Position numbers and translations under genes: made by a program. This document shows positions 41,598 to 64,000 of a DNA stretch of 64,000 bases, one piece after another (the first letter of the stretch is position 1; each line of letters starts with the position of its first letter). The notes under the pieces were generated by a model. It was not told where the DNA came from. It saw only the letters and a program-made list of their open reading frames with translations, and made no database searches. This stretch comes from Candidatus Woesearchaeota archaeon (GTDB taxonomy: Archaea > Nanobdellota > Nanobdellia > Woesearchaeales > GW2011-AR4): positions 985 to 64,984 of the forward strand of contig JACPMX010000016.1 in the NCBI GenBank assembly GCA_016185755.1, read 5' to 3'.

Positions 41598-41634
41598 AAT
41601 AAGCTTTAAATATGCCGCTTCTGTTCTTTGGGAT

Positions 41635-42357: not shown

Positions 42358-42359
42358 CT

Positions 42360-43037: not shown

Positions 43038-43645
43038 AAATGAAAAAACTTGTGATATCCCCCCATATAGATGATGAAGTTCTTGGATGCGGGGGAATAC
43101 TTGACAAGGACACATTCGTGCTGCACTGCGGAGTTGAGGACAGGAGCTACGCGAGCGCGGAAGAAAGGCTAAAGGAGATAAAAGAAGCGCAGAAAATAGC
43201 GGGGTTCCAGATGAAGCTCCTTAAGAATGAAGTCAACCACTATGCGGAAGCAGACTTGATAGGGGATTTTGAAAGCACCATAAATGAAATCAAGCCTGAG
43301 ATGGCATTCATACCGCACCCATCCTACAACCAGGACCACAGGGCAGTGTACAATGCCGCGCTGATTGCATTAAGGCAGCATGACATAAACTTTTTCGTGA
43401 AGAAAGTGCTGGTATACGAGCAGCCTCAGGATGTTTTCTGGGACTTCAACAGTGAAAAAGGCTTCAAGCCGAATTATTTCGTGCCTATTGACATTGAAAG
43501 AAAACTGAAACTGTACTCGCTGCTTAAAACACAGGTAAGGCCGTTCAGGAGCCTTGAGCATGTAAGGGCGATTGCTGTCCTGAGGGGGGGCCAGAGCAAC
43601 TGCAGGCATGCAGAGGGCTTTGAAGCTTTGAGATGGATTGACTAG
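43034..43645 (+). CDS. PIG-L/LmbE-family N-acetylglucosaminyl deacetylase
   Basis: LVISPHIDDEVLGCGG is the zinc-binding H-x-D-D-E signature. ATGA overlap with the formyltransferase gene. Confidence 0.8.
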   Translation: MKMKKLVISPHIDDEVLGCGGILDKDTFVLHCGVEDRSYASAEERLKEIKEAQKIAGFQMKLLKNEVNHYAEADLIGDFESTINEIKPEMAFIPHPSYNQDHRAVYNAALIALRQHDINFFVKKVLVYEQPQDVFWDFNSEKGFKPNYFVPIDIERKLKLYSLLKTQVRPFRSLEHVRAIAVLRGGQSNCRHAEGFEALRWID

Positions 43646-43649
43646 CACT

Positions 43650-47081: not shown

Positions 47082-47794
47082 ATCCCACCAACCACTTTCA
47101 AAATTTTCAGCTTCAAAACCATGAAATACCCTGACACAAGCTGGGGAATCCCGAGCTTTGAACGGCCTTTTGTCCTGTTTACGAAGGTTATGGGTATTTC
47201 CTTTATCCTGAATCCCTTCAAATGCGCCTTGAAAAGCACTTCCTGGACTATTGAGGGGCCTTTTGACTGGAGCTTTTCAGGCTTTATAGATTCCAGAACT
47301 TTCCTTTTGAAGCACCTGAAGCCGGAATTGCAGTCCATGACTTTCAGCCCAAGAACAGCCCTTATGTAAAGGTTTGCGCCAAATGTAACAAGCCTCCTGA
47401 ATGCGCTTCTTCCAATCTCATCGCCTCCCCGGACCCTTCTTGAGCCAAGGATTAAATCAGCGTTTTTCAATTCATTAAGCATGATGGGAATATATTTAGG
47501 GTCATGCGACATGTCGGCATCCATCTCGACAACAGCATCAGCCCCGTGCTTCAGGCAGTATATGAAGCCGTCTTTTCCTGCAGAGCCCCTTCCCTTGTCC
47601 TTTTTCCTGAGCAATAGATGGACATTTCTGTTTTTTTTTGAAATTGCCTCAACAATTTTTGAAGTGCCATCCGGGCTGCTGTCATCGGCAACAACAACAT
47701 GGAGATTTTTTATTTTCAGCTTCAGTATTTTATCTATCAAATTGCCTATGTTCTCGCTTTCATTGTAGGTTGGAATCATTACAAAGGTTTTCAT
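47078..47794 (-). CDS. Dolichyl/polyprenyl-phosphate mannose (hexose) synthase-like GT2
   Basis: FVMIPTYNESENI...VVVADDSSPDGT...VVEMDADMSHDP is a close match to Dpm1/GtrB-type enzymes. Confidence 0.8.
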   Translation of the reverse strand: MKTFVMIPTYNESENIGNLIDKILKLKIKNLHVVVADDSSPDGTSKIVEAISKKNRNVHLLLRKKDKGRGSAGKDGFIYCLKHGADAVVEMDADMSHDPKYIPIMLNELKNADLILGSRRVRGGDEIGRSAFRRLVTFGANLYIRAVLGLKVMDCNSGFRCFKRKVLESIKPEKLQSKGPSIVQEVLFKAHLKGFRIKEIPITFVNRTKGRSKLGIPQLVSGYFMVLKLKILKVVGGI

Positions 47795-48801
47795 TTTTTA
47801 ATCAGCTTCTTGACAGCCTTGACAAACTCATCAACATCCCATTCTGGAGGATAGTCGCATTTGGGCTTGTACGAGCAATAGTCTTTTCCTTTCCCCATGA
47901 TTTTTATTCCCCTGCCGTATAATTCAATTTCTGCACTGCTAGTTGGATAGAAAAAAGCCGCAACTTTCTTCTTCAATGCAACCCCGATGTGCAATGCAAG
48001 GCTGTCGCTTGTTACCAGAACATCGCACAAATTAACGAGAGAGACAAACTCCATCAGGGAATTGCTGCAGCCAGCGTCTATAACTCCTGTTCCGGCAAGC
48101 TTCTTTATTTTTTTATTTCTTTCCATCTCTTCAGGCCCGCCGAACAAAATTGGCCTTGCGTTTTTTATCTGCATGTTTAACTTATCAATCAGCTCCGCTG
48201 TTTTTTCAATGCTTAATTTCTTGTCTTCCCACCTGCCTCCAGCCCCTGTATTGATCCCTATGGCAAAATCTGATTTTCTAATGCCGTGCTTTTTGGCAAA
48301 CCTGCCTCCAAAATCCAGCTCTTTCCTGCCTAAAGCCAGCATCGGCTCCTGCTTCAGGTATTTTAGCCCGAGAATCCTGTACATTATTTCAGGATAGGTT
48401 TTTTTGTTTTTTGCCTTCAGCAAATCCGCTTTCCGCTTTCCAAGCCTTGAAATCAGGCCCATGTCAAACCAAGGCGAAGAATTGTCTGTATACATTCTTT
48501 TGCCGTTTTTCAGACATGAGCCTATAATCTTTTTGGATGGCATACTTGATGCCAGCTCGCAGGCCTCATAGTCATCGTCCAGGCTTATGAGAATGTCGTA
48601 TTTCTTATGCCTCAGCTTTTCAGCATCTTCAATCAAGTAGATTTTGCCTATCAAGCCATTGTTTTTCAGGAAGCCGGCAGAGCCCTTTTTCGTGGCCCAG
48701 TCTATCCTGCAGCCCCCGTATTTTTCCTTAAGGCCAGGAAGCACAGCGGTTGTCCTGATTACATCGCCCAATGCGCCGAGCTTGATTATGAGTATTTTCA
48801 T
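47791..48801 (-). CDS. GT9-family glycosyltransferase (ADP-heptose:LPS heptosyltransferase fold)
   Basis: MKILIIKLGALGDVIRTTAVLPGLK is the classic GT9 N-terminus, with C-terminal GGPEE...SDSLALHIG. ATG 48801 is preferred over the TTG at 48846. Confidence 0.7.
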   Translation of the reverse strand: MKILIIKLGALGDVIRTTAVLPGLKEKYGGCRIDWATKKGSAGFLKNNGLIGKIYLIEDAEKLRHKKYDILISLDDDYEACELASSMPSKKIIGSCLKNGKRMYTDNSSPWFDMGLISRLGKRKADLLKAKNKKTYPEIMYRILGLKYLKQEPMLALGRKELDFGGRFAKKHGIRKSDFAIGINTGAGGRWEDKKLSIEKTAELIDKLNMQIKNARPILFGGPEEMERNKKIKKLAGTGVIDAGCSNSLMEFVSLVNLCDVLVTSDSLALHIGVALKKKVAAFFYPTSSAEIELYGRGIKIMGKGKDYCSYKPKCDYPPEWDVDEFVKAVKKLIKK

Positions 48802-48882
48802 CAGCAGCAATAAACCTGAGCCTATTTTAAAGCTTTTCTTTACCAAAAATATTTATAAAGCCGGCTTCCTGACTATAGCCTG

Positions 48883-50496
48883 ATGAAATTAAACAAGAAC
48901 TACATCCAGACTTCCATATTCATAGCCCTATACCTTTTCGCCATTTATTTCTGGACGCAGCCGCTGCAGGAAAGAAAGCTGCCTTACGGGGAATATGACG
49001 CAATGTCCCATTTTGAAGTTGCCGATTACATGGCATACAATGACAGATCCTTCATGAAATTGCCTGACTACATCGACTTGAGGTACGGCCTCGACAACAA
49101 ATACAAGCCCCATACACTGTGGTATCCTCCCCCATTCCATGCATCGCTTGGGGTGGCTGAGACGATCGGTGGGGAAAGAATAGTGCCTGTATTTTTGCTC
49201 AACACTGTCATGTCAACATTCATCATGATAAGCGTTTATTTTGTAATAAATTCATTGTTCGGGTTTTTGCCGGCCATCCTGTCATCGCTGCTGCTGGTTT
49301 TTTCACCAAGGGACTTCATGCCATATTTATGGGGGCAGTGGCCGGAAAGGTTTGCTTATGCACTTGTCCCGATAATCCTGTACTGCTTTTACATGTATTT
49401 CACCAGCTTTTCAAAAGAAGACAAGAAGCCAATTTACCTTTACATGGCTGCACTGTTCCTGGGAATAAACATATTAATCCATCCTCTTGTGTTTTTCCAT
49501 TCAGCTGCAGGACTGGCTTTGCTTTACATTTTCCTGTCCATAAAGCAGAAAAAGCTTGTTTTTGAGTGGAAGCATATTGCTGTTTCTGCAATGATTTTTC
49601 TGGCATTGTTTTTGCTCTTTCCATACCAGACATTCAACATATTCCCGAAATTCACAGGAAGCGAAGAAACTGGGGAAGCAAACCCTTTTGACCTGTCAAG
49701 GCTGTTCCAGTGGTCATTAAACCCGGCAGATTATGCAGGAAGCGTGCCTCCAAGTTATTTTTCATTCAGGGATATGCACGGCCTCTGGACTTTGCCGCTT
49801 TTGCTGGCCGGCATACTGTTTTTGGCTTGGAGAAGAGAGGAAAGAGACCTGCTTTTGATGGCATGGCTTGCAAGCCTTTACATTGTGCTGCACAGGGATT
49901 TGATAGGGCAGGCATCATTTTTGCACAGGTCATTGTCAGCCTCTGCCCATATATTCGCCCCATTGGCTGCGATTGGCGCAGTTTACCTTGCTTCAATCAT
50001 AAAGCTGCCTTCAAATTTAAACAAGTACCTGAAATACGGCATCGCAGCTGCTTTTGTTTTTCTTGTTATTTCGGTAAACATGGCATACGCGTCAAAATTG
50101 CTGAACAAGGACACTTACAATGATTTTTTCGGCACTTTGAACAGGGAGGAGTTTGAAGCGGCAGAATGGATTTTGCAAAATGTGCCCAGCTCTGCAAATG
50201 TGACTGTACTTGGAATTCCTCATGAGCCTGACAAAGTATTGTCTGTAACTTCCAAAAAAATAAGATGGCTTGCAGCTGCATCGCAGCATGTTTCAAGGTT
50301 TTACTATCTAAGGGAAGACCAGGAGCAGATTTTGAAATCAAAAGACTGGTACATAATGATTGACTACACAATGCTCGGCCCCCTAAATGACAGGCAGACT
50401 TTTGAAAAAATGCAGAAGTTTGAAAAAGAGTCTTTAATTAAACATAAGTTAGTTTATGACAAAAACAGCATAAAGGTGTATAATCTTGAAGATTAG
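48883..50496 (+). CDS. GT-C-like polytopic membrane protein with C-terminal extracytoplasmic domain (paralog of 1..1053 and 52501..54141)
   Basis: 537 aa. The N-terminal loop PYGEYDAMSHFEVADY (compare PYGYFASDAFQHQTRVEW in 52501..54141), about 11 TM helices, and C-terminal WILQNVPSSANVTVLG...YIMIDY. Confidence 0.45.
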   Translation: MKLNKNYIQTSIFIALYLFAIYFWTQPLQERKLPYGEYDAMSHFEVADYMAYNDRSFMKLPDYIDLRYGLDNKYKPHTLWYPPPFHASLGVAETIGGERIVPVFLLNTVMSTFIMISVYFVINSLFGFLPAILSSLLLVFSPRDFMPYLWGQWPERFAYALVPIILYCFYMYFTSFSKEDKKPIYLYMAALFLGINILIHPLVFFHSAAGLALLYIFLSIKQKKLVFEWKHIAVSAMIFLALFLLFPYQTFNIFPKFTGSEETGEANPFDLSRLFQWSLNPADYAGSVPPSYFSFRDMHGLWTLPLLLAGILFLAWRREERDLLLMAWLASLYIVLHRDLIGQASFLHRSLSASAHIFAPLAAIGAVYLASIIKLPSNLNKYLKYGIAAAFVFLVISVNMAYASKLLNKDTYNDFFGTLNREEFEAAEWILQNVPSSANVTVLGIPHEPDKVLSVTSKKIRWLAAASQHVSRFYYLREDQEQILKSKDWYIMIDYTMLGPLNDRQTFEKMQKFEKESLIKHKLVYDKNSIKVYNLED

Positions 50497-52163: not shown

Positions 52164-52520
52164 CTATTTCCTCAAATTAATAATTGCCCCCATTAAAATC
52201 AAAATCAACGGCAGTATTACAATATGGTGCTTTATGTCCAGCCCAAAAACCCCAAGGTAATAGCTTGCTATGCCTGCAACAGCCAGCGAAACTGCGATGC
52301 CAATCACAAATCTCTCGGCAAAATCAAGCTTTTCATGCCAGTAAAGCGTCAGGAAATAGCCCGGCAATGCGAACAGCCAGAATAAGGCCAAAACAGCCCT
52401 TGCAGCGGAAATAAAACCCCCCCTGTAAAACATTATCCAGAAAATAACTATAAATAATACTAAAAGCGCCGCTATATTCAGCAGTTCCTTTTTCATCCTA
52501 TCAAAAATTTCTTTCTTCAA
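52164..52520 (-). CDS. Small 3-4 TM membrane protein (paralog of 50486..50836), downstream of a GT-C-like gene
   Basis: 118 aa, hydrophobic. Overlaps the end of 52501..54141 by 20 nt (translational coupling). Confidence 0.4.
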   Translation of the reverse strand: MKKEIFDRMKKELLNIAALLVLFIVIFWIMFYRGGFISAARAVLALFWLFALPGYFLTLYWHEKLDFAERFVIGIAVSLAVAGIASYYLGVFGLDIKHHIVILPLILILMGAIINLRK

Positions 52521-54141
52521 TGCAATCCTCCCCCGGATTTTTGTTTTTCAATATGACTACCAGCTGGTTTTCAAAAACAGGGCTTATAAAATTCTTCTTG
52601 AGCAGCTCGTTTGCCAATAATAAGTTGTACTGGGCAAAAGCCTGCTGCCCTGAAGTTTTGTCAAAAACAAGATAATCAAAACTGCAGATATCCTTTTTTC
52701 CTGACAAATCATTCCTGATGTCATCTGCTGCAAAATGGAATGAAAAGAACGATGGCCTCTGGACCGCACCCCCGCCACCATCCCCAGGCATCTCAGTCTC
52801 GTAAAACCTTCTTAACTCTCTTTTGCTTATGGCATCGGCATAATCTTCAGGCACAATAAGCCCATGCAGCCTTTTTGCATTTCTCAGCACGGCATCCTGG
52901 CCGTACATGTCGCCATAAAAAAAGTATACCCTGGCGCTGTTATCAGTGCTTTTGCCGAGCCATTGAAAAGCCTGCCAATGAAAATTGTCCATAATCCCCT
53001 GGGCTGTCATTTTTTTGTAGCCTGGGATGAATGCAAAAGAGGCTGTTGTTAAAACTATAATAAGCGCAACAGAGGCTATAACAGAGTGCAGGATTTTCCA
53101 GTTTCTATATAATGTATTGGCAATATAAAAAATCCCCAATCCTAAAAGAAACGAAAGGTAAACCGGCCAGAAAAATCTCAGCTGGAAAGCTCTTGTGTCA
53201 AAGCCGATATAGTTGGTGTAGCTGAACAGCAGCATTGACGCTGCAATCACAAACGGAAGCATGTCTTTTTTCCTAAGCCAGGTAAGGGACACTATAATCC
53301 CTGCTGCAAAAAATACCAGCAGCAACCCAAAATCGCCGAAAAACATCAATGGAGCATCCCATGCCCTTTTTATGGAAAGCTCGAAAGGCTGCCTGACTGC
53401 CCACACAAGCTTGAATATAACAAGGAAATTGAACGTCGCAACGACAGTTATTATCGAGCCGTACACTGCATTTTTTATAATTCCAAGGCTGAATTCTTTC
53501 CGCAGCAGCTTATAAGCGAGAAATATGGCAAAGAACATTGCCGCGAAAATGGCCTCGGCAGTATGCGTCAGGATTATTGCGCTCAGGAACACGGCAAAGA
53601 AGATGAATGAATGTTTAAGGTCAATGTTTGCCGCATACCAGAAAAATGCAACAAGGAAGAACTGGGACAATAAGGATGGCCAGTGTCCCCAAGTAAAGCC
53701 TGTATAAATGCCGTTGTAGAACAAGAGCACAGCCAAAGGCATGGATAAAATTGCGACATTTTTGCTGAAGTTCCTGATTATGAAGTACATCACAATGGCT
53801 GCAATAGCAGCTGCAAAGAAAACCATGAACTGCAGAGTGTCGTATGTTTCAAGCCCGCTTGCGTATGACAGCAGCACGCTTAAATGGTATATGACCGGCG
53901 GATAATAGCCTATGACATCCCTGATGCCAAATACTATGTAAGGAGCCTCGTTTCTATAGTTTCCTTCATCCTTTATCCACTCGACCCTTGTCTGGTGCTG
54001 GAAAGCGTCAGAGGCAAAATATCCATAAGGAAAGTCATGGCCCAGGCTGTGGTCCACAAGATTGGCATAGCCCAGAAATAGCAATAGGGAAAATACAGAG
54101 ATTAGGTAGATGTTTTCAAGGTCCAACTTTAAGTTTAGCAT
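52501..54141 (-). CDS. GT-C-like polytopic membrane protein with C-terminal extracytoplasmic domain (paralog of 48883..50496)
   Basis: 546 aa, more than 10 TM helices. C-terminal QAFQWLGKSTDNSARVYFFYGD...SFDYLVFD parallels the C-terminal domains of the two paralogs. Confidence 0.45.
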   Translation of the reverse strand: MLNLKLDLENIYLISVFSLLLFLGYANLVDHSLGHDFPYGYFASDAFQHQTRVEWIKDEGNYRNEAPYIVFGIRDVIGYYPPVIYHLSVLLSYASGLETYDTLQFMVFFAAAIAAIVMYFIIRNFSKNVAILSMPLAVLLFYNGIYTGFTWGHWPSLLSQFFLVAFFWYAANIDLKHSFIFFAVFLSAIILTHTAEAIFAAMFFAIFLAYKLLRKEFSLGIIKNAVYGSIITVVATFNFLVIFKLVWAVRQPFELSIKRAWDAPLMFFGDFGLLLVFFAAGIIVSLTWLRKKDMLPFVIAASMLLFSYTNYIGFDTRAFQLRFFWPVYLSFLLGLGIFYIANTLYRNWKILHSVIASVALIIVLTTASFAFIPGYKKMTAQGIMDNFHWQAFQWLGKSTDNSARVYFFYGDMYGQDAVLRNAKRLHGLIVPEDYADAISKRELRRFYETEMPGDGGGGAVQRPSFFSFHFAADDIRNDLSGKKDICSFDYLVFDKTSGQQAFAQYNLLLANELLKKNFISPVFENQLVVILKNKNPGEDCIEERNF

Positions 54142-54142: not shown

Positions 54143-56455
54143 TTATATCGTTATCGTTAAATTTCTTGAGTCCGTCAAGCTGTTGTTTCTTGCGGTTGCA
54201 TTTACATTATACGTTCCACTTGCTGTGAAATTGTAATCTATATAAATAAACATCTGCTCGCTCGGCTGCAATATGCTTGATATTGTGCTGTTTATTATAT
54301 TGCTGTTATTGGTGTTCAAGGACCAGTTTACGCCAGTTAGATTTATATTCAGATTGTTTTTTATTACAAATTCAAATATTCTTTTATTTCCTGATTCATT
54401 TACTATGCTTAAATTAAACGCTTCCAGGTGCTTAATATCAAGATTTAATGTTTTTGAGTCTGAATATGTTTGGTTTGTAACAGTAGCCACAAGGCTGTAA
54501 GTGCCGCTAGCCCCATAGTCATATTTTACGAATATAAAGATTGTCTCGTTAGGCTGGATAGATGCAAACTGGCTTGTTGAGTTTATAATACCATTGTTTC
54601 CAGTTGTTAAAGACCAGTTGACATTGGTTATATTGCTTTCCAAATTGTTTTTAGCCTGTATTTCAAAAATTACTTTGGCAACATCCGTATTTACATCATC
54701 AAAGCTTGTTATTGCCAAATCCCCTACTCCAATGCTGGAGCTTAAAGAAGAGCTTATTATAGTTGATTGGCTCAATCCGGTCGCATTTGCTCTTATATTG
54801 TAAGAGCCTTCATCCGAGAAATTGTATTGTACATATACAAAAGCCCTTTCATTCACAGCCAAGGAGCTTATATTGGAAGTGCTGTTTATTATGTAGCTGT
54901 CATTCGTGTCAAACCACCATTGTACATCGGTTACTGCTGTGTCTCCGTCATTCAGAATAACAAATTCAAAGATTTTGAGTGTACCATTGGTGTACATTGC
55001 GGTTATAGATTCTATAGCTAAAGAAACAATTGTTGGAGGAGTATTCTGCACAATGTTGTTGCTTTCGTTGCTTTCATCAACCAGATTGTCGAAGTCTGCT
55101 ATGGCTGTGAACAGGGTTATATTGGATGTATTGCTTACTATAAAATTATAAATTTGTGATTCGTTAACATTTAGTATCACAGTACTATTTATAGCTGAAA
55201 AAGTTTCATTGTTAAAAACATCAAGGAATACATTAAAAGCTGTTGACTCTCCAGTATTATTGAGTTTTATTGTAACATTAGATTGATTTGTTGTCTGGTT
55301 GAAAATTACAGTCATATTCAGTTTCAAATCAGGCAAAGGCGGCCTTTCAAAATCTGTATAAGTTAAATTTGTTATTGTATGCGGCTCAAACTGCTTGTCT
55401 GTAATATTCCCATTTTCTATTAGCCTTGTGACACTTAATATATATGGACCGCTTATCTTTGCAGCATAGATGTCAGAGCCATTTATTCTTATGCTTACAG
55501 TCTGATTTCCAATAGACAAGCTTTGTGATGCAGACAGATTTTTGACAAAATTGTTGAATTGGTCATACATTTCAGCTTGTATTTCATAAGTATTTGTGCT
55601 TTTAACTGCTACAGTAAAGTTTACTTCCAGAAACTCCGACAAATTATTTGCATTAGTATCTATGCCAGTGCTGCTATAGTTTCTAAAGTAAGAAGTTTTT
55701 GCAAAGTCTTCATAATTATAAATTGATGTTGAATATGATGGCTTAATAAGTTTTCTGCCTATTAACACAGAGTCCAATGTAAAGTTTCCAGTGTAATGGG
55801 TGGATTTTATAGTCTCATTGTCAAAATCCAATGAAATTGTTTGCAATCCAGATGATAAGGTTACTTGTTTTGTTGCGCTAATTATAGTTTCATTAAATTT
55901 CAAATATGCAGTGATATTTGCATCTTGATTTTGGGAGACATTGAGTGTTAAGTTTATTCTAATATGATTGCTGTTTAAATTCTCATCTGTTATTCTGTTT
56001 ATATTTGTGCCATTACCAAAACCGCTGTAAGTGTTTGTCTCTATATTGTACTTGCTGAAAACCAGAATATTCGTTGTGTTATAAATTCTTACAGAATAAT
56101 TATACTTATTTTTGGTTAATAAGCGAGTGTCAAAGCTTATATTGACGTTGGATATACCTGAAGAAATGCTTTGATTAATCCTGTTGGACAATGTTCCGCT
56201 TTCTTCTGACAAATCAAAATAAACTTCGAAAAAAGCAGTGTAAGTTGAGTTTACGGTGATATTTATAATCAATGTATCGTTCTGTCCATTTGAGTTAGAA
56301 TCCAACATGTAATCAGAAAACTGATTAATATTAAGTGTACCATCATTATAGCCAAAATTGTAAGAGTCTATTAGTTCTTGAAGTGTTATCGAGTAGGCAG
56401 ATGGGACTAGTAAAAATAAATATAATAACCATATAATTAGATTTTTACACTTCAT
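54143..56455 (-). CDS. Secreted, sequon-dense surface protein (candidate S-layer / cell-surface glycoprotein)
   Basis: Signal peptide MKCKNLIIWLLYLFLLVPSAYS. Very high Asn/Thr/Ser content with dozens of N-x-S/T sequons (NQSI, NISF, NTTN, NGTN, NLTL...). AT-rich coding sequence. Confidence 0.55.
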   Translation of the reverse strand: MKCKNLIIWLLYLFLLVPSAYSITLQELIDSYNFGYNDGTLNINQFSDYMLDSNSNGQNDTLIINITVNSTYTAFFEVYFDLSEESGTLSNRINQSISSGISNVNISFDTRLLTKNKYNYSVRIYNTTNILVFSKYNIETNTYSGFGNGTNINRITDENLNSNHIRINLTLNVSQNQDANITAYLKFNETIISATKQVTLSSGLQTISLDFDNETIKSTHYTGNFTLDSVLIGRKLIKPSYSTSIYNYEDFAKTSYFRNYSSTGIDTNANNLSEFLEVNFTVAVKSTNTYEIQAEMYDQFNNFVKNLSASQSLSIGNQTVSIRINGSDIYAAKISGPYILSVTRLIENGNITDKQFEPHTITNLTYTDFERPPLPDLKLNMTVIFNQTTNQSNVTIKLNNTGESTAFNVFLDVFNNETFSAINSTVILNVNESQIYNFIVSNTSNITLFTAIADFDNLVDESNESNNIVQNTPPTIVSLAIESITAMYTNGTLKIFEFVILNDGDTAVTDVQWWFDTNDSYIINSTSNISSLAVNERAFVYVQYNFSDEGSYNIRANATGLSQSTIISSSLSSSIGVGDLAITSFDDVNTDVAKVIFEIQAKNNLESNITNVNWSLTTGNNGIINSTSQFASIQPNETIFIFVKYDYGASGTYSLVATVTNQTYSDSKTLNLDIKHLEAFNLSIVNESGNKRIFEFVIKNNLNINLTGVNWSLNTNNSNIINSTISSILQPSEQMFIYIDYNFTASGTYNVNATARNNSLTDSRNLTITI

Positions 56456-56780
56456 TTATAGTTACCTCTTGATTTTCATCAGTATGTAAGTAATCAAAGA
56501 CAAAAATTCCGTCTAAGTCTTCCTCTGAGACATAATCTATTTTTTCAGTAACAGATTTGCTAAAGTAGAATTCCCTATCATCAACCAATTTACGTAAAGC
56601 AGCAAGTTCGCCGTCAATATCATTGCCTAGAACGTAAATGTTATTGCCGCTTCTTATCACAATGCCATTATATGGCAGTCCCTCAATTATTGTTATATTA
56701 AAAACTAAAATAGCTAAAACTAATATGGGCGATATTTTAACTTTTAAATTTTGTTTGAAGGTCACTTTTTGATAGGTCAT
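56445..56780 (-). CDS. Small signal-anchored protein consisting of one copy of the EGLPYNG...FYFSKSV...DLDG.FVFDYLHTDENQ domain
   Basis: N-terminal hydrophobic segment then a domain about 60% identical to segments of 57117..58877 and 59148..63473. DNA-level similarity is also visible. Confidence 0.4.
   Translation of the reverse strand: MTYQKVTFKQNLKVKISPILVLAILVFNITIIEGLPYNGIVIRSGNNIYVLGNDIDGELAALRKLVDDREFYFSKSVTEKIDYVSEEDLDGIFVFDYLHTDENQEVTINEV
56470..56720. repeat. Shorter, more diverged third copy of the repeated segment (shared-domain portion)
   Basis: catcagtatgtaagtaatcaaagacaaaaattccgtctaagtcttcctc... is alignable with 58225.. and 60258.. Confidence 0.45.
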
Positions 56781-56786
56781 TTTTAG

Positions 56787-57113
56787 TTAAAGGCTTTTTG
56801 ATACAGACAATACTATTACAATAAATACCATATACAATGTAAAGACTAATATAATTACAAAAAATATTATCTGTAAGATTAACTTGATTGTCATATAGTT
56901 TTTCTTTATCAATAAATTAATAATAAAGTCAAAAATTAAACCGATAGTTAGATAGATAAAAATAATTAAGGAGTAAGTCAATAGAATTTTTCCTCCTACA
57001 ACTTCTTTTAATTCATTTCCTTTCGATAATGCAACAAAAATAAAGATGATAATAAATATCGAAATGCAAATTAAATTAAATATGGTATGTTTAAATTTTT
57101 TAAGTTGTATCAT
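56787..57113 (-). CDS. Small hydrophobic membrane protein
   Basis: 108 aa, three hydrophobic helices, extremely Ile/Leu/Phe-rich. Could also be a compositional artefact of the AT-rich region. Confidence 0.3.
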   Translation of the reverse strand: MIQLKKFKHTIFNLICISIFIIIFIFVALSKGNELKEVVGGKILLTYSLIIFIYLTIGLIFDFIINLLIKKNYMTIKLILQIIFFVIILVFTLYMVFIVIVLSVSKSL

Positions 57114-57116
57114 TTT

Positions 57117-58660
57117 TCAATCCTCCTCTATGCTCCATACAATTTTATCAAACCTAGAATAGGTAACGTCGTTTAAAAAAGCCGAGATCAAGTAATAGGT
57201 GCCTGGAAAGTCTGCCATAGAAGCATGAATATCAACTATAGCGGCTTTGTATTTTTTAGTAGAATTAGAATTTTGATAAATAGATTGAATATCAGTATCT
57301 GGAATAACACCATCATCACTGAAACCTCCCAATCTACTTCTTACAAGTAATAATTTATTTATTGATGTTAATGAAGGATTAGAATCAGATTTGTTTATTA
57401 CCCTATTCTGTATATCTATCCATAGATTATATGATACAACTCCATCACTCTGAGTTACTAAATGTAATAGTTTACAGTCAATTTCGTACCATTTACAAAC
57501 CTTGTTAATTGAATCACTAATATTTTTTTGAGATATATGGTTATATTGTGAAAGTGCAGATTTTGTTTGGTTGCCATGCCTATCGATTATTGCTGTAAAT
57601 CTGGTTGTTCCATTAAAAGTCCCCATAGGTGCAAGTAGTACCATATGGTCTACAAAATTTGCTGAAAGATTGAAGGTTGTCCAATTTCCAGAATCATTTA
57701 AATAGTAACCAATAGTATTTGATGTTCCTTGATAATATTGGGTGTAAGAATCTAATGCGAGACCACCACCTAAAGAATAGCCAACATAATCAACACTATT
57801 TTTATTTGAATATTTTAGAACTCCTCCTAGTAAGGCTGGCCAATAATAAGTTTTTAAAGTGTTATAATCGTAATTTGGACATGTGCTACATTCTGTATTA
57901 GGACCGCCAGTATATTCTATTAACCATACATCTCTTACATATTTGCCGTTAAAAGCGTTATCTTTAGCTATTTTATTAGCTAACTTCTCAAGTGAGAATA
58001 AATCTCCAAATACCCCATGCCCTAATACAACAGGTCTAGGATTAGAAAAATTTTTATATTTTACACTTAATTCTGCATTTATGTTTTTTAGTCTCAAACT
58101 TGTATTATCATTAGCGGTGAGGACCCTTTTAATCGAAAGTGATGTAACATCGCTATTCAAAACATTCTCCACAACTTTCCTAAAATTCTCATTATTCTTC
58201 CTGTACTTAGCTTGGTTTTCATCAGTATGCAGATAATCAAATACGAACAGCCCATCCAAATCTTCTTCACTTATGTAATCCGCCCTTGAAGAAACACTCT
58301 TACTAAAGTAAAATTCTTGATTATCTACTAGTTTTCTTAAAGCTGCTATGTCACCGTCTATCTCATTGCCAAATACATAAATATTTGTACCATCTTTTAC
58401 TACAAGGCCATTATAAGGCAAGCCTTCACTCTTTGATGTGTATGTTATGATATTATTTTCATATTTCCAGTTTTTATTGTCTGTTTTTTGTAAATCTTTT
58501 GGAAGATTAGAATTCTTCCTTCCAACATAAATATTTACATCCTGACCGCTGGAAACAATATCAATATAATCATCCAAATAATTATTAATTACAGAAGTTA
58601 AAACTGGATAATCAGTTACAATGTCTATATAAGCCTTTGTTGCTGGACGAGCAGCTTTTT
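57117..58660. repeat. Paralogous DNA segment (copy 1) encoding a lipase-like module, about 75-80% nt identity with 59148..60700
   Basis: Example: 58215-58450 against 60250-60485, with long runs of identical bases (ctcatcagtatgca.ataatcaaa.ac.aaca.cccatccaaatcttcttca). Confidence 0.55.
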
Positions 58661-58877
58661 TGATATAATTATTTTTCTCGTCAGTTTCTGCTATTATGAA
58701 AAATATATATGTGGTATTATATTCAAATATTGGTTTGGTGGTATATTCAAAAGAATAAATTAACAATATTATAATTGAATTATTTTCATTAGCGTATGAA
58801 GTGGAGGATAAGGTAATTAATGTTATACTAAATAATAAAATTAACTCCAGTACTTTTATAATTTTTTGTTTAGTCAT
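57117..58877 (-). CDS. Secreted alpha/beta-hydrolase (lipase/esterase-like) protein. It carries the shared N-terminal domain and is paralogous to the C-terminal 515 aa of 59148..63473
   Basis: Signal peptide. VVLGHGVFGD (oxyanion HG) and VGYSLGGGL (GxSxG nucleophile elbow). About 75% identity to the C-terminal region of the 1441-aa protein. Confidence 0.55.
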   Translation of the reverse strand: MTKQKIIKVLELILLFSITLITLSSTSYANENNSIIILLIYSFEYTTKPIFEYNTTYIFFIIAETDEKNNYIKKAARPATKAYIDIVTDYPVLTSVINNYLDDYIDIVSSGQDVNIYVGRKNSNLPKDLQKTDNKNWKYENNIITYTSKSEGLPYNGLVVKDGTNIYVFGNEIDGDIAALRKLVDNQEFYFSKSVSSRADYISEEDLDGLFVFDYLHTDENQAKYRKNNENFRKVVENVLNSDVTSLSIKRVLTANDNTSLRLKNINAELSVKYKNFSNPRPVVLGHGVFGDLFSLEKLANKIAKDNAFNGKYVRDVWLIEYTGGPNTECSTCPNYDYNTLKTYYWPALLGGVLKYSNKNSVDYVGYSLGGGLALDSYTQYYQGTSNTIGYYLNDSGNWTTFNLSANFVDHMVLLAPMGTFNGTTRFTAIIDRHGNQTKSALSQYNHISQKNISDSINKVCKWYEIDCKLLHLVTQSDGVVSYNLWIDIQNRVINKSDSNPSLTSINKLLLVRSRLGGFSDDGVIPDTDIQSIYQNSNSTKKYKAAIVDIHASMADFPGTYYLISAFLNDVTYSRFDKIVWSIEED

Positions 58878-59164
58878 TTTTTCTTTAATCTCCAGTACCT
58901 TCTATAAATAAAAAATGAAATTGTTATTAACCAGTAAAGAATTAAAAGACCCAATCCCAAAGTTAATAAATATCCTATTGCCAAAGCTAACCCGATTCCT
59001 CCTAAACCACCATCGTCTAATTTAGGAATTTTGATTGCCACCATAAGCAAAATCAAATTAAATAAATGAATTAAAGTGCCTGAAATAATCCAGATGATTT
59101 TGAACATACTCTTATTCTTTTTTTCCCTGATTTTTCTACTTGCCATTTTAGTCTTCCTCAACAA
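58874..59164 (-). CDS. Small membrane protein (2 TM)
   Basis: 96 aa, two hydrophobic helices with a Gly-rich loop (DDGGLGGIG). Overlaps neighbours on both sides. Confidence 0.3.
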   Translation of the reverse strand: MLRKTKMASRKIREKKNKSMFKIIWIISGTLIHLFNLILLMVAIKIPKLDDGGLGGIGLALAIGYLLTLGLGLLILYWLITISFFIYRRYWRLKKK

Positions 59165-60700
59165 TATATCTTAAATTGTCGAAAAATGAATATGTTATAT
59201 TATTCAAAAATTTACTAAGAAGGGGATCATAGGTTTCAGGTTCATCTGGTAAGTTTGAATGTCCAGTAATTTGGAAAGTCCTACCTTTATATTTCTTCGA
59301 AGCATTTGAGTTAGTATAAATATAGGAAATATCTGCATCAGGTATAACAAAGTCATCACTGAACCCCCCTATTGCATTATATATAACTAATAGTTTATTA
59401 ATTGAAGATAGCTTTGGATTTGTATTACTTTTATTTTGTACTTCTGTTACTATATCGACCCAGAAATTATAAGATATATTATTTGTACTCGGCAATTGAC
59501 GAAAGACAAACTCTTGTAATGTATTTAGATTACAAACTTTTAACGAAGCATCTATTATATCTTTTCTATTAATATGAGACTTGGTTGAAAGTTGGTTATT
59601 TATCTTTATTCCACAAGAATCAACTAAAGAAGTAAACCTAGTCGTCCCATCAAACGCCGCCATAGGAGCAATTAAAGCCATTTGCTCAACAAAATTGGCT
59701 GGCAGGCTAAAATTAACCCATTGACCTGAGTTATTTAAAAAATAACCCATTGGGTTAGTAGTACCTTGGTAATATTTTTCGTAAGACCTTAAACCAAGCC
59801 CGCCTCCTGCAGAATAGCCTACATAATCTACTTTATTTGTATTAGCATATTTTAATACACCTCCAATTAAGGCTGGCCAGTAGTAGTCAACTAAAGTGCC
59901 ATAAGTGTAGTTTGGACAATTAGCACATTCTGTGTTTGGTCCTCCTGAATATTCTATTAGCCAAGTATCTCTAACATATTTTCCTTGAAACTTTTGGTCT
60001 GTAGCTATTTTCAAACCAAGTTTCTCCATACCAAATAAGTCACCAAATAAACCATGTCCCAAGACTACAGGTCTAGGGTTAGAGAAGTTTTTAAATTTTG
60101 GGCTTAATTCTGCATTTATATTTTTTAGCCGTAAGCTAGTATTATCATTAGCAGTCAAAACTCTCTTTATTGCCAAACTATAAACATTAGCATTTAAAAC
60201 ATTCTCCACAACCTTAACAAAGTTTGCGTTATTCTTCCTATACTTAGCCTGATTCTCATCAGTATGCAAATAATCAAAAACAAACAACCCATCCAAATCT
60301 TCTTCAGAAATATAGTCGACTCTTGAAGCTACAGATTTGCTAAAGTAAAATTCTTGGTTATCTACTAGCTTTCTTAGAGTTGCAATATCGCCGTCTATCT
60401 CATTACCAAAAACGTAAATATTATTTCCGCTTCTTACAACTATTCCGTTGTAAGGCAGTCCTTCTTTTTTAGAATTATATTGAACTAAATTTCCAGTCAG
60501 CATCCAGTTTTGGCCTGAAGTTTTTGTCAATGTTTCTTTTGGTATATTGCTATTCTTTCTTCCAACATAGATATTTACATCTTGACCGCTAGAAACGACA
60601 TTAACATATTGTCCTAGAAAATTCTTGATAGTGTTTACTAATACTGGATAATCGGTAGTAACATCAATATATGCATTTATTGGTTTGCTAGTTGATTTCT
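59148..60700. repeat. Paralogous DNA segment (copy 2) inside the 3' third of the giant protease-lipase gene
   Basis: See copy 1. Direct (same-strand) orientation; the copies are about 2 kb apart. Confidence 0.55.
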
Positions 60701-63473
60701 TGATGTAATTATTCTTATCGTCTGTTTCGGCTACAACATTTGTAAAATCAACCGTTATTGATACAAAATCAGTTGAATTTGTATCCCAAAGAACAGAAAC
60801 GTTTTGATTTACATATTGAGAAACAGAAATTATCTTGCTCTCATTCTGTGTTGGCTTTCCGGTTTGGCTATTCAGTCCTCTGAAATCTATTACCACATTA
60901 TTTTGATTTACTTTCTCAACAGTTATCAAAGCAGTTATATTAGATTTTCCGCCTTGAGTTTTAATAGTTACATCTGATGTCTTAATTGACAAATCAGTCT
61001 TATTAATACAGATACTGCAATCAAACATTAAAGAATCATAATCGTTATTATTGTCAATAGTGCTTGATTTAGTGCCGCAAAAAGTGCTATTATCGCTGCA
61101 ATAAATATCAATTGATTGGCTATTGCCACAAACTGCATCTCTATAGTTTATTTCTTTGAAACCATCTGAATCAGTTGTGCCATTTAAAATTCCATTATTA
61201 TAAACTTTAGTTCCGTTTATTGGATTGCTTTTTGAATCAGTTACAATTACAGATATAGTGCCATTGCAAAGATTTGTTGTTGTCCCTGAAGTGCAAGGAG
61301 AAGCAGGTGTGGAATTTCCATTTGTCCCAAAGTCTGCATTTGCTTCATCGGCGTTGGAATCACAAGAAGTGTCTGCTGGGCATGTAATAGTACCTATGTC
61401 TATTGTGCCTCCTGTGTAAAAGCATCTATCCGCATATTGTGTTGTGCTTGTGCATACATATTGTCTGCTACTGCATATATAATAAAACCGTTGTGGCATT
61501 CCTCTTGTTTTGTAGCCTGCGCTGTTATAGCAGTACAAGCTGTCTATCTCTTTACTTTGTGAAGTTGATGTAGGAGCAGAATGCTCTCCCAATGAGCCAT
61601 CAGAAGTGCAGCTTGGGCTTGCTTCTTGGCATGCAGTATCAAATGTAGTATTTGTCCTGCAATTATCGATATCAGTTTGAGTTCCAAAGCATTTATCATA
61701 AACATTATCATTAGTCCAATCAAAGCATTCGGCAAGAATTGTTTCTGCAGGCTGAGGTATATTTTTTGCATTTAAAGCCCAGTTTTTAAAAACTACTGAA
61801 TCATGCTTGCAATCTATGCCTGTTGGGCATGCAAGAATATAATCGTCCGATAGATTTATGATATGGGACAAAAGTATTAAAGTACCAAATTCATCTACAT
61901 TATAAATGTTTGATTTTTTGCTTCCATCATCAAAAGTTAGATTAACCAAATAATACCCGGGCATAAAACTAACATCATCAATAGTTCCAGTTCCATTTAA
62001 CCAGAAATTATAAGTAATATTCGGCAGTCCGAAATTACTAATATTAAAAACCTCATAAAAGTAAGTTAAATTTGTTATTGTAAAATTGGTAGTTTGCAAG
62101 TTTACTTGTACTAATCCATACCCATACAAGTCATCCTTTTCAGCTTGCCCTAAATCCAAAGCATCGTTTCTAAGTTTTGCCCTTATTTGTTCATTAGTTA
62201 ATGAATTATTAAAAGCTTTAATCAAGGCAGCTACTCCTGCGACATGAGGAGCAGCCATAGAAGTTCCAGAAGAAACAGAATAACCATTGCCTAGATAAGT
62301 GGAATTAATATCAATTCCAGGCGCAACTAATTCCTGCTCAAAGCCGTAAGAGGAAAAAGAAGCCAAGTTATCGTTTTCTGCGGTAGCTCCTACTGCTATA
62401 ACAGTATCATATTTTGCAGGATAAAGAATGTTATCTTGTCCATTGTTGCCTGAAGCTGCGATTAGTAAAATATTATTGTTGTAAGCTTCCTGCAGAACTT
62501 CTTTAAATATTTGTGAATAAGAATCAAAACCGAAACTCATTGAAACTATGCTGATATTATTGTCAATGGCCCATTCAATCCCTGCAATAGCATTGCTCAA
62601 ATCACCGGTGGAGCCTTGCATTATCTTGACAGAATACAAAGAAACTTCAGGAGCAACCCCTGCCAATCCTTCATAATTCAATAGGGCAGCTATCACTCCA
62701 GCAATAGATGTTCCGTGCCCGTTGCTGTCAAAATAATTATTGTCAACAAAAGAAATACCCCCTGCAATGGCTAAATCATCATGCATGCCAATTCCTGTGT
62801 CTAATACAGCAACTTTAACACCAGAACCATTGCTCAAATTCCAAACAGAATCGGCTTTAATCTTTTTTATGTTGAATGGCGTAATTTCTCCTAAAACTTC
62901 TACATTCTGCTCTAACTCAAAGAATTCTACTTCGTTGTCCTCAATCAAATCTTCTATATCTTCTACTTCACCTTTAATTTTAGTTACTTTGAATCTTTCA
63001 ATCTTCTTATCTAAAGTAACATTAACAAGCTTACTTTCATCTATAGAATTCCTGAATTTAATTATATAATCTTTGACTTCTTTCTTATCTTTTATATTTT
63101 TTAAATATTTTTCAGTTTCATTGTTAAATTTATTTTTATGTTTTTCAATAATTTCCGATAAATTTTTTAGTTTTTTAGGTAATGATTGATTAATTATTGT
63201 TAAGTTCTCTATAGGAACAGATAAATTTATAATTATTGTTTGGTTTGTTAATGTTATATTTTCTAATGCTTGATTTTGAGTTGTTAGATTGCTTGTTTCG
63301 TTAGTGGGCAATGTTGTATTTGTTATGGGAGTTTCATTAACAATATTAACCAGTGTTATATTTAAAGACTCATTGGTAGAATTAGTCACAACAGCGCTTG
63401 CAACCAAAAGGGAGTTTAAAATAATGATAAAAGCAGGAACAATCCCCGCTTGCCCTCTTTTTTTGTTTTTCAT
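59148..63473 (-). CDS. Giant secreted multidomain protein: sequon-rich N-terminus, subtilisin-like S8 peptidase, Cys-rich region, shared domain and a C-terminal lipase-like alpha/beta hydrolase
   Basis: Signal peptide. S8 triad motifs VAVLDTGI (Asp), HGTSIAG (His), GTSMAAPHVAG (Ser). A region of about 350 aa has many Cys and NxT. The C-terminal VVLGHGLFGD...VGYSAGGGL module is duplicated in 57117..58877. Confidence 0.75.
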   Translation of the reverse strand: MKNKKRGQAGIVPAFIIILNSLLVASAVVTNSTNESLNITLVNIVNETPITNTTLPTNETSNLTTQNQALENITLTNQTIIINLSVPIENLTIINQSLPKKLKNLSEIIEKHKNKFNNETEKYLKNIKDKKEVKDYIIKFRNSIDESKLVNVTLDKKIERFKVTKIKGEVEDIEDLIEDNEVEFFELEQNVEVLGEITPFNIKKIKADSVWNLSNGSGVKVAVLDTGIGMHDDLAIAGGISFVDNNYFDSNGHGTSIAGVIAALLNYEGLAGVAPEVSLYSVKIMQGSTGDLSNAIAGIEWAIDNNISIVSMSFGFDSYSQIFKEVLQEAYNNNILLIAASGNNGQDNILYPAKYDTVIAVGATAENDNLASFSSYGFEQELVAPGIDINSTYLGNGYSVSSGTSMAAPHVAGVAALIKAFNNSLTNEQIRAKLRNDALDLGQAEKDDLYGYGLVQVNLQTTNFTITNLTYFYEVFNISNFGLPNITYNFWLNGTGTIDDVSFMPGYYLVNLTFDDGSKKSNIYNVDEFGTLILLSHIINLSDDYILACPTGIDCKHDSVVFKNWALNAKNIPQPAETILAECFDWTNDNVYDKCFGTQTDIDNCRTNTTFDTACQEASPSCTSDGSLGEHSAPTSTSQSKEIDSLYCYNSAGYKTRGMPQRFYYICSSRQYVCTSTTQYADRCFYTGGTIDIGTITCPADTSCDSNADEANADFGTNGNSTPASPCTSGTTTNLCNGTISVIVTDSKSNPINGTKVYNNGILNGTTDSDGFKEINYRDAVCGNSQSIDIYCSDNSTFCGTKSSTIDNNNDYDSLMFDCSICINKTDLSIKTSDVTIKTQGGKSNITALITVEKVNQNNVVIDFRGLNSQTGKPTQNESKIISVSQYVNQNVSVLWDTNSTDFVSITVDFTNVVAETDDKNNYIKKSTSKPINAYIDVTTDYPVLVNTIKNFLGQYVNVVSSGQDVNIYVGRKNSNIPKETLTKTSGQNWMLTGNLVQYNSKKEGLPYNGIVVRSGNNIYVFGNEIDGDIATLRKLVDNQEFYFSKSVASRVDYISEEDLDGLFVFDYLHTDENQAKYRKNNANFVKVVENVLNANVYSLAIKRVLTANDNTSLRLKNINAELSPKFKNFSNPRPVVLGHGLFGDLFGMEKLGLKIATDQKFQGKYVRDTWLIEYSGGPNTECANCPNYTYGTLVDYYWPALIGGVLKYANTNKVDYVGYSAGGGLGLRSYEKYYQGTTNPMGYFLNNSGQWVNFSLPANFVEQMALIAPMAAFDGTTRFTSLVDSCGIKINNQLSTKSHINRKDIIDASLKVCNLNTLQEFVFRQLPSTNNISYNFWVDIVTEVQNKSNTNPKLSSINKLLVIYNAIGGFSDDFVIPDADISYIYTNSNASKKYKGRTFQITGHSNLPDEPETYDPLLSKFLNNITYSFFDNLRYIVEED

Positions 63474-63499: not shown

Positions 63500-64000
63500 T
63501 CACTTAGTTGCGTTAATCAGCTTTTCAACCTCCAAAGTGATGTTGCTGGAAGTCTTATTTGCCAACTCCAAAGTATACAGCACGGGAGTCAGGTTAAACA
63601 TATTCACATAGCTATCAGAAACTCCTATGCGATTGAAAGCCCACACCTTATTATTTTTCTTGACAGCCCTGTCAAAGGTGCCTCTTGCTTGACCATTGCT
63701 TAGGTTTCTGGCATAAATCTGCAGGTCTGTATAGTTAGTGTAGCCGCTCAGCAAAGCATTTTGAACTCCAATACCTATAGAACTCCTTCCGGCAGCCTCC
63801 AAGCCGGTTATTGAAAGCGATAAAGCTCCGCTTGTGCTGTTTTCCTGCGTGTTGTTGCTGGCGTCCTTGCAGCTAATGAAAAGATAAGACGTATCATAAA
63901 CCAGCTCGTCTTGCGAAGTTAGCGTGCATAGATGGCTGGTTGTTCCTTCTCCAGCCGAAGCTCCTGTGCAGTTTCTGGAACTTCCTATGGCTGTATAATT
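63500..64000 (-). CDS. 3'-portion of a minus-strand gene encoding a sequon-rich secreted protein (the gene probably continues beyond the window)
   Basis: The reading frame is open to the window edge. The translated C-terminus contains NxT/S sequons (NYTD, NLSN, NLTP, NKTS, NITL). Confidence 0.3.
   Translation of the reverse strand, partial: NYTAIGSSRNCTGASAGEGTTSHLCTLTSQDELVYDTSYLFISCKDASNNTQENSTSGALSLSITGLEAAGRSSIGIGVQNALLSGYTNYTDLQIYARNLSNGQARGTFDRAVKKNNKVWAFNRIGVSDSYVNMFNLTPVLYTLELANKTSSNITLEVEKLINATK

Follow-up and report, generated by a model that had tools for sequence, protein, structure and literature searches.

The closest described counterparts of the genes considered here are the polymorphic toxin systems, in which lipase-like Tox-ABhydrolase heads occur together with subtilisin processing domains and with downstream cassettes that carry immunity genes; such systems are rare in archaea (PMC3482391). 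A second relevant system is VARTIG of the Thermococcales, a large secreted immunoglobulin (Ig)-domain protein with a shuffled C-terminal part and variable downstream genes, itself likened to polymorphic toxins (PMC8416519). Here we describe an array of genes in a 64000-nucleotide stretch of DNA (the window: contig JACPMX010000016.1, positions 985–64984, assembly GCA_016185755.1) from a Candidatus Woesearchaeota archaeon, a member of the DPANN archaea. Two of its genes, for a 1441-residue protein (59148–63473) and a 586-residue paralogue (57117–58877; HYX08_07300), encode what their sequence signatures mark as secreted, heavily N-glycosylated multidomain proteins, and both end in the same unit: a domain of a new family (the N-domain), a linker, and an α/β hydrolase. 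A small membrane protein gene follows each hydrolase gene, and comparison with related loci demonstrates at the sequence level that old hydrolase subtypes have been exchanged behind the N-domain. The best overall explanation, held with about even confidence, is that these proteins are esterase/lipase-type effectors that follow a logic like that of polymorphic toxins.

A first-pass annotation of the DNA had picked out three open reading frames (ORFs) of 1441, 586, and 111 residues, and these lie exactly where it placed them. It took them for adjacent genes; they do form an array, but ORFs of 96 and 108 residues, both encoding predicted transmembrane proteins, are interleaved. All ORFs of the array and of the island that contains it are on the minus strand of the window, and from the 1441-residue gene to that for a 770-residue protein (54143–56455), the stops and starts of neighbours overlap or are no more than 6 nt apart. 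The literature searched does not describe the combination seen here, in which a DPANN-restricted unit contains a new domain, a small membrane partner is obligatory, half of the domain has a gene of its own, and the catalytic head is exchanged between array members; taken singly, the hydrolase fold and the S8 protease domain are ordinary.

The C-terminal hydrolase

An AlphaFold2 (AF2) model was made of the last 630 residues of the 1441-residue protein (812–1441; protein number equals model number plus 811). Built with 81 sequences, it has a predicted local distance difference test score (pLDDT) of 91 and a predicted template modelling score of 0.73, and it supersedes an earlier run with 23 sequences in which the hydrolase alone was well modelled and the N-domain stayed at pLDDT 30–60. 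Four parts are resolved in model numbering: an Ig-like domain (13–116), the N-domain (122–264), the linker (272–320), and the hydrolase (321–630).

The hydrolase occupies residues 1132–1441 of the long protein (59151–60080) and residues 279–586 of the paralogue (57120–58043). The HG...GYSxGG motifs and the ...EED ends reported by the first-pass annotation are present, and its description of a lipase-like α/β hydrolase is borne out by fold comparison. Foldseek searches of the PDB with two models gave 587 and 132 matches at E ≤ 1e-3, and the matches listed (50 per model) are all α/β hydrolases, with template modelling scores relative to the target of 0.5–0.65. They include gastric and lysosomal acid lipase, the <i>Escherichia coli</i> esterase YbfF, monoglyceride lipase, PhaZ, PhaC, and epoxide hydrolases, at E-values of 1e-9 to 1e-7 and sequence identities of 10%–16%; the top matches in a viral structure library are α/β hydrolases as well. 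The acid lipases are matched no better than the esterases, epoxide hydrolases, and PhaC.

On the modelled fold and the order of its residues, the domain is a member of the α/β-hydrolase fold superfamily. A four-helix cap is placed between β6 and β7 in the AF2 model. The predicted catalytic triad of the 586-residue protein consists of the nucleophile elbow G366-Y-S368-L-G370, D522, and H551, and that of the 1441-residue protein of S1221 (GYSAG), D1374, and H1405, with an oxyanion motif at G1139-H-G. The predicted Ser, Asp, and His follow strands β5, β7, and β8, each between strand and helix, so that the outcome named in the first-pass annotation as its refutation, a structural model lacking a Ser-Asp-His triad, is not what the prediction gives. 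Conservation across the family is high at all three positions (Ser 143/157, Asp 136/137, His 127/129; 91%–99%), while in the oxyanion 'HG' motif the Gly alone is conserved. Taken with the model, this describes a conserved and probably active cap-bearing serine hydrolase. Like Abhydrolase_1-type enzymes (1k8q/6v7n, 3bf7, monoglyceride lipase, PhaZ/PhaC), the domain has the fold and the order oxyanion loop, elbow, cap between β6 and β7, Asp after β7, and His after β8; it differs from them in an extra loop, in its obligatory fusion behind the N-domain, and in its 10%–16% identity. The 586-residue protein scores 14.4 bits against Pfam Abhydrolase_1 (PF00561; E=0.031), below the gathering threshold of 25.8 and with no match at E ≤ 0.01, whereas 8 of 40 distant relatives match that family at E ≤ 1e-3 (best 1.7e-8). 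The window proteins are thus divergent relatives of Abhydrolase_1 rather than called members of it.

The extra loop follows β4 and carries a near-invariant GGPxTEC-x-x-CP motif (C330/C333 in the 586-residue protein, 57879–57890; C1183/C1186 in the 1441-residue protein, 59916–59927). Its Cys pair is probably a disulfide or a metal site near the modelled active-site face, and we know of no such loop in the standard α/β hydrolases. At the nucleophile position, Asp replaces Ser in 14 of 157 members (for example GYDLGG in P0012 and GYDLGC in P0059), which points either to another chemistry or to variants without activity.

The N-domain and its stand-alone copies

The N-domain comprises residues 933–1075 of the 1441-residue protein (60249–60677) and residues 80–222 of the paralogue (58212–58640). 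It is modelled at a pLDDT of about 90 as an α/β domain of some 145 residues, with the order β-α-β, hairpin, β-β-α-β-α, and is joined to the hydrolase by a conserved linker of helices and a β-hairpin (residues 1076–1131 of the long protein; 60081–60248). The first-pass annotation had described a shared domain of about 80 residues; what is shared is this larger domain together with the linker and the hydrolase, and the EGLPYNG...HTDENQ segment (residues 1004–1075; model 193–264) is its C-terminal half.

Searches with an N-domain profile found nothing below E=0.79 among PDB sequences or below E=0.016 in Pfam, and fold searches with the whole model are dominated by α/β hydrolases and Ig domains. 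Its occurrences are confined to proteins with this hydrolase and to truncated ORFs of the loci that encode them. It is a new, strongly constrained domain family of no named kind, as the first-pass annotation had supposed when it could give it no family name; being α/β and so confined, it is also not the generic β-sandwich spacer that the annotation had named as a possible refutation.

Over residues 61–586 and 913–1441, respectively, the 586- and 1441-residue proteins share 65% identity (530 residues, BLASTP E=0). Their genes had been put at 75%–80% DNA identity over about 1.5 kb; the measured values are lower, at 72% over 1114 nt plus 68% over 196 nt, or 66% across all 525 aligned codons, and the longest exact match is 19 nt. 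Divergence is distributed very unevenly. No part of the protein is better conserved than the N-domain segment, with 93%–97% amino acid identity between paralogues, and because the DNA of this segment is only about 82% identical, its conservation reflects function. Amino acid identity in the hydrolase ranges from 20% to 80% and is lowest, at 20%–43%, in the helical cap. Recent gene conversion was considered as the cause of the conservation of the shared domain and is ruled out by the same contrast of 93%–97% amino acid against about 82% nucleotide identity, and by saturated synonymous divergence (dS).

The third ORF of the first-pass annotation, 111 residues long (HYX08_07295; 56445–56780), encodes a hydrophobic N terminus and half an N-domain (residues 33–104; 56469–56684) without a hydrolase. 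It keeps the C-terminal half, 72 residues that are 81% identical to the 1441-residue protein (E=2e-41). Its end overlaps the start of the gene for a 770-residue protein by 11 nt, and an overlap with the start of the corresponding 770/771-residue gene is kept in three genomes. Hydrolase-less ORFs of this kind, of 100–348 residues, are found in at least seven genomes, all ending 3–12 residues past HTDEN. Over their 71 shared codons, nonsynonymous divergence (dN) is 0.08–0.18, and dS is above 1.2 (saturated) or not computable, giving an omega of about 0.03–0.09 where it can be computed; this indicates purifying selection on the hydrolase-less ORF. The possibility that the 111-residue ORF is a dead remnant was rejected on its low dN of 0.11–0.18 against saturated dS.

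A side observation concerns the last 40–60 or so N-domain codons of the 1441-residue gene (window positions of about 60250–60360), which are 88%–94% DNA-identical to a 348-residue hydrolase-less ORF of the related locus L001 (about 10900–11020), more similar than to any other copy. This may be a short conversion or transfer, although the compared segments are small and the case is uncertain.

Exchange of hydrolase domains between copies

Two related islands, at loci L001 and L002 (L003 and L004 being copies of L002), allow the array to be compared gene by gene. L002 is the longer, with the order 201-residue ORF, 484-residue ORF, S8 fusion of 1421 residues, 98-residue transmembrane ORF, 683-residue paralogue, 106-residue transmembrane ORF, 619-residue paralogue, 114-residue transmembrane ORF, 145-residue N-domain-only ORF, and 771-residue glycoprotein gene. 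L001 has a 212-residue ORF, a 499-residue ORF, an S8 fusion of 1445 residues, a 105-residue transmembrane ORF, the 348-residue hydrolase-less ORF, and a 771-residue gene. In all three related loci, that of the window included, the array closes with a hydrolase-less N-domain copy overlapping the start of the 770/771-residue gene.

When the proteins are compared in 40-residue segments from residue 121 of the 1441-residue protein onwards, identity to the S8 protein of L002 is 65%–95%, and to that of L001 50%–97% (with one segment at 38%), up to residue 1120 or thereabouts. Beyond this point, identity to both S8 orthologues is only 15%–57%. The hydrolase of the window protein instead resembles that of the 683-residue protein, the second array gene of L002, to which it is 72%–97% identical in six of eight segments and 42%–57% identical in the cap region. 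The same switch is found in the DNA, by BLASTN and by codon-level scans. Divergence starts near residue 1115 (about 1115–1137; window positions of about 60060–60130), at the end of the linker, but the crossover itself can be placed no more finely than residues 800–1115 or so because in that interval the window gene resembles both donors equally.

The pattern extends beyond this one gene. Among ten genes compared, N-domain identity groups by genome and hydrolase identity by subtype, with subtype A, to which both window hydrolases belong, recognised by GHGxFG...GYSxGG and subtype B by A[RG]GLWSNLF...G[FH]SNGC; further subtypes exist. The 1441-residue protein and the 1421-residue protein of L002 share fractional identities of 0.79 in the N-domain and 0.33 in the hydrolase, whereas the values against distant locus L005 are 0.46 and 0.50. 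Among 90 members, the 53 pairs with at least 65% N-domain identity fall into two groups by hydrolase identity, at 0.31–0.44 (35 pairs) and 0.51–0.75 (18 pairs), and many pairs show the converse, with hydrolases alike and N-domains not. As far as sequence comparison goes, this shows that recombination within the N-domain/linker region, or at its end, has exchanged old hydrolase subtypes. The proposal of the first-pass annotation that the array can recombine thus holds for the past, but not in the sense of easy present-day recombination, given 72% identity and a longest exact match of 19 nt.

The downstream paralogues of the related loci (L002 10001–12052, 12391–14250, and 14594–15031; L001 10001–11047) are of interest in themselves. 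Several begin mid-domain and without a signal peptide, the 683- and 619-residue proteins of L002 among them, and these nevertheless form long intact ORFs and retain catalytic residues, in the manner of orphan cassettes.

A small membrane protein gene follows each hydrolase gene

The 96-residue ORF (58874–59164), with two predicted transmembrane helices, abuts or overlaps the stop of the 1441-residue gene, and the 108-residue ORF (56787–57113), with three, begins 3 nt after the 586-residue gene. The arrangement recurs: a transmembrane ORF with two to four predicted helices directly follows all ten hydrolase genes (two in the window, three in L002, one in L001, and one in each of the distant loci L005–L008) and none of the three hydrolase-less ORFs. 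In L005–L008, the family gene is followed, at 3 nt or less or with overlap, by an ORF of 118–164 residues with two to four transmembrane helices, and then by a CARDB protein, with a LamG protein next in three of the four. From stop-codon frequencies, the chance of an open frame of about 100 codons at 21%–30% GC is estimated at around 1e-4 per frame.

Sequence, length, and number of transmembrane helices are all hypervariable among the small ORFs, which can hardly be aligned. Only the 108-residue ORF and the 106-residue ORF that follows the second hydrolase gene of L002 are significantly similar (E=2e-11); the remaining matches are hydrophobic noise. The 108-residue ORF appears to be unannotated at NCBI, because its neighbours carry the consecutive tags HYX08_07295 and HYX08_07300, and the 105-residue transmembrane ORF of L001 (9682–9999) is likewise uncalled.

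A DPANN-restricted family

A profile search of 1.84 billion cluster representatives shows the window proteins to belong to a family that numbers at least 414 clusters at E ≤ 1e-3 and 235 at the stricter E ≤ 1e-30, and whose members are nearly all annotated as hypothetical. Named members come from Woesearchaeota, Pacearchaeota, Nanoarchaeota, and records labelled simply 'archaeon', with one record labelled Methanococcoides sp. SA1; a close-alignment scan of genome contigs returned five loci, all from Woesearchaeota or Nanoarchaeota. The N-domain/hydrolase unit is always at the extreme C terminus, in proteins of up to 1875 residues, and a hydrophobic N terminus is present in 73 of 90 long members. 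The front varies: at least 23 of about 160 family representatives carry an S8 protease, and among 40 others, CARDB domains are present in 20, FG-GAP in 14, β-helix/NosD in 13, and VWA in 1. The fusion of protease and hydrolase, which the first-pass annotation had considered unusual, is therefore a recurrent architecture of the lineage and not an oddity of one genome. The literature searched contains no description of either the fusion or the family.

Comparison with known systems

Several features of the array are those of polymorphic toxins (Tox-ABhydrolase-1/2/3; the Tle/Tli pairs of type VI secretion systems). The window proteins appear to be secreted and multidomain, with a GxSxG α/β-hydrolase head at the C terminus and, in the long form, a protease on the same polypeptide, subtilisin being among the processing proteases listed for such toxins. 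A small gene directly follows the head, and further downstream lie 5′-truncated copies of the head, each with a small gene of its own. A conserved pre-head region is where recombination puts one head in place of another, and close full-length proteins differ abruptly at the C terminus, with the switch near residue 1120 and the new head corresponding to the second array gene. The locus, moreover, is atypical in composition.

There are also differences. Polymorphic toxins draw on many head folds, whereas here there is one, of which subtypes alone are swapped, and diversity is greater in the N-terminal halves. The genes are accompanied by no known marker of a secretion system, no RHS or filamentous repeats, and no PT-domain. 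Where the toxin systems have soluble or lipoprotein binders for immunity, the candidates for that role here are tiny polytopic membrane proteins, and the island is hosted by a DPANN archaeon where the toxin systems are bacterial. The likeness to VARTIG lies in an archaeal island, a C terminus shuffled by recombination, and variable downstream genes; however, what varies in VARTIG is an Ig domain and here it is an enzyme, the lineages differ, and VARTIG has no hydrolase, N-domain, or pattern of small transmembrane partners.

Two further comparisons concern maturation. As in lipA-lif operons, a gene for a membrane-anchored protein directly follows a lipase-like gene, and as in subtilisins, an I9-like propeptide region lies ahead of the S8 domain. 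Unlike Lif, however, the downstream proteins are of 96–164 residues, consist almost wholly of two to four transmembrane helices, and lack a large lipase-embracing helical domain; with almost no soluble mass, they cannot be foldases of the Lif type.

Possible functions of the array

In the explanation that we favour at about even confidence, the proteins would be serine esterase/lipase-type effectors displayed on or released from the cell surface, the long form adding a protease, and would act on the envelope of other cells, plausibly that of the host on which DPANN archaea depend. The catalytic heads, variable in their caps, would have undergone diversification and swapping of the kind known from polymorphic toxins, their small membrane protein would be a cognate protective (immunity-like) or docking partner, and the invariant N-domain would serve as a constant docking or pre-head module, possibly binding the 770-residue glycoprotein. 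A stronger form, in which the array is an archaeal counterpart of polymorphic effectors with interchangeable lipase-like heads that breach or harvest the host membrane, each with its own immunity protein, and with new heads installed by cassette recombination, is doubtful. A number of observations weigh against the effector explanation as a whole. Archaeal membrane lipids are ether-linked and would not be cleaved by esterases. The same α/β-hydrolase fold forms the C-terminal end in every one of some 160 representatives examined, and N-terminal parts are more variable than the heads, the reverse of classical polymorphic toxins. The sequence of the small transmembrane ORF does not follow the subtype of the head and, to our knowledge, proteins with two to four transmembrane helices and short loops are unlike the known immunity proteins of lipases. 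The exchanges are old (about 75% DNA identity; longest exact match in the window 19 nt), and the 586-residue copy has a signal peptide of its own and so is not a silent cassette.

Two rivals deserve to be taken seriously. It is possible, though we consider it improbable, that the genes instead encode scavenging exoenzymes of a genome-reduced heterotroph, a protease-esterase and esterase isozymes of differing cap specificity that digest polymers from the environment or from the host, with ordinary isozyme duplication behind the array and the small ORFs incidental or simple anchors. The predicted S8 and Ser-Asp-His sites are intact, signatures of secretion and glycosylation are present, differences between paralogues concentrate in the substrate-defining cap, and DPANN S08A peptidases are usually taken as extracellular degradative enzymes (PMC8561730). 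Left unexplained by scavenging are the placement of the hydrolase behind adhesin-type domains (FG-GAP, β-helix, VWA, CARDB) in most of the family, the transmembrane ORF after every one of the ten hydrolase genes, the retention of intact 5′-truncated, signal-less copies, and the exchange at the level of domains. The constancy of the unit's position invites another, rather unlikely interpretation, namely that it attaches proteins to the envelope or helps to assemble them there, as a constant base for variable passenger domains that face outward, the N-domain docking on an S-layer-like lattice of the 770-residue protein, the transmembrane protein acting as an anchor, and the hydrolase being a transacylase or a foot that binds lipids. 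The unit invariably stands at the C terminus, behind widely varying N-terminal parts, the N-domain is the most conserved part and common to all paralogues of one genome, and the 1441- and 586-residue proteins have neither a C-terminal transmembrane segment nor a known sorting signal. Attachment would also account for gene order, in that the stand-alone N-domain ORF is translationally coupled to the 770-residue gene in three genomes (with similar truncated ORFs in at least four more) and a CARDB glycoprotein gene comes after the pair in distant loci. A docking partner, however, should be conserved, and the small ORFs are hypervariable; a structural foot, for its part, needs neither a near-universal catalytic triad nor a hypervariable cap.

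Two narrower proposals concern the shared domain and its short copies. The first-pass annotation had suggested an intramolecular chaperone or inhibitor, of the hydrolase or of the protease, and the constant position of the domain ahead of the hydrolase and the existence of a free-standing copy would fit; but it is far more conserved than the enzyme that it would assist, unlike typical propeptides, and the model shows it with confidence as a globular domain of its own, connected through a linker. The S8 protease, moreover, already has an I9-like propeptide region, to which the N-domain shows no profile similarity (hhalign probability 0.2%), and the stand-alone copies are half domains found beside the 770-residue gene and not beside a hydrolase. 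A chaperone or inhibitor is hence hard to credit. Very unlikely, too, is that the 111-residue ORF, possibly with other short copies, is a functionless, decaying remnant of tandem duplication. Variable 5′ ends (100–348 residues across genomes), the mere half domain of the 111-residue ORF, and the lack of a signal peptide in several copies would be expected of remnants, yet a decaying frame would hardly combine the low dN and omega given above with an open frame ending at the same 3′ position in at least seven genomes and an 11-nt overlap with the 770/771-residue start kept in three.

DPANN archaea cannot make their own lipids and must get them from hosts, and the molecules at the contact sites are largely unknown (PMC11291902). 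Heads acting on foreign membranes would, if the effector explanation is right, be a testable candidate for host attack or lipid acquisition, and would bring a logic like that of polymorphic toxins to archaea, where such systems are considered rare. Even a conservative reading yields a new N-domain family, a gene triad (hydrolase, small transmembrane protein, CARDB glycoprotein), and small genes that have escaped annotation.

The 1441-residue protein and its island

The 1441-residue protein, named 'S8 family serine peptidase' by NCBI and identical to database protein P0169, has the composition that the first-pass annotation gave it, with an S8 peptidase, a Cys-rich domain, and a sequon-rich N-terminal part. 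Its order is a hydrophobic, sequon-rich N terminus, an I9-like propeptide region, the S8 domain, the Cys-rich region, a CARDB-like Ig domain, the N-domain, the linker, and the hydrolase, and it contains 47 N-x-S/T sequons in all. The Peptidase_S8 domain (residues 216–453; 62115–62828; Pfam E=1.3e-55) has D225 (VLDTG), H253 (HGT), and S405 (GTSMA), and thus both the Pfam match and the Asp-His-Ser order of a subtilase (MEROPS S8). NCBIfam matches are of the S8 type only, and PADLOC matched nothing but the subtilase part.

The Cys-rich region (residues 549–822; 61008–61829) holds 20 Cys, and phmmer searches of sub-segments show that residues 736–812 are common to 39 family members. It is followed by the Ig-like domain of CARDB type (residues 824–927; 60693–61004), which ends in ...AETDxxNNY; the AF2 model renders it as an all-β sandwich closing with the D-x-x-NN motif. 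There is no Pfam match to CARDB (PF07705) in the window proteins, whereas 20 of 40 relatives do match. The 586-residue protein is a shorter version of this plan, with a signal-peptide-like N terminus and a vestigial Ig domain ahead of the N-domain, linker, and subtype-A hydrolase.

The region forms most of an operon-like, compositionally distinct DPANN island of some 10–12 kb; its 586-residue protein is identical to one of a Candidatus Woesearchaeota metagenome-assembled genome. GC content at third codon positions (GC3) is 0.22–0.33 in the island genes as against 0.43–0.58 in the 29 other genes of the window, and the small island ORFs have an overall GC content of 0.21–0.30. The contrast between island and surroundings is equally sharp in L002 (3360–17336), which suggests lateral acquisition or a special codon regime. 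Sequons number 2–7 per 100 residues in island proteins and 0–0.9 elsewhere in the window. No inverted repeats were found flanking the array, and Rfam and tRNA scans of the window gave no matches.

The last gene of the island, a conserved one, encodes the 770-residue secreted protein (54143–56455), with Ig/PKD/CARDB-like repeats, 54 sequons (7 per 100 residues), and weak matches to DUF4785_3rd and PKD. The gene is about 80% identical in DNA to the 771-residue genes of L001 and L002; homologues come after the pair of hydrolase and small ORF in distant loci, with CARDB proteins at that position in L005–L008. On these features the protein is a candidate S-layer or surface-lattice glycoprotein. One nucleotide past its stop starts the gene for a 546-residue polytopic membrane protein (52501–54141), which has host-like composition (GC3 0.51), and no match in Pfam, NCBIfam, or PADLOC; it does not belong to the island in L001 or L002.

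Adjoining the island is a glycosylation region (37000–50496) that encodes three GT2 enzymes, one GT4/GT1 and one GT9 enzyme, two PMT_2-type membrane glycosyltransferases, an RmlD-like reductase, and two radical-SAM/B12 enzymes; these enzymes plausibly supply glycans for the sequon-rich island proteins. At the opposite end, the gene upstream of the 1441-residue gene is clipped by the edge of the window, which holds only its 3′ end (63500–64000); its orthologues in the related islands, located ahead of the S8 gene, encode sequon-rich proteins of 484 and 499 residues.

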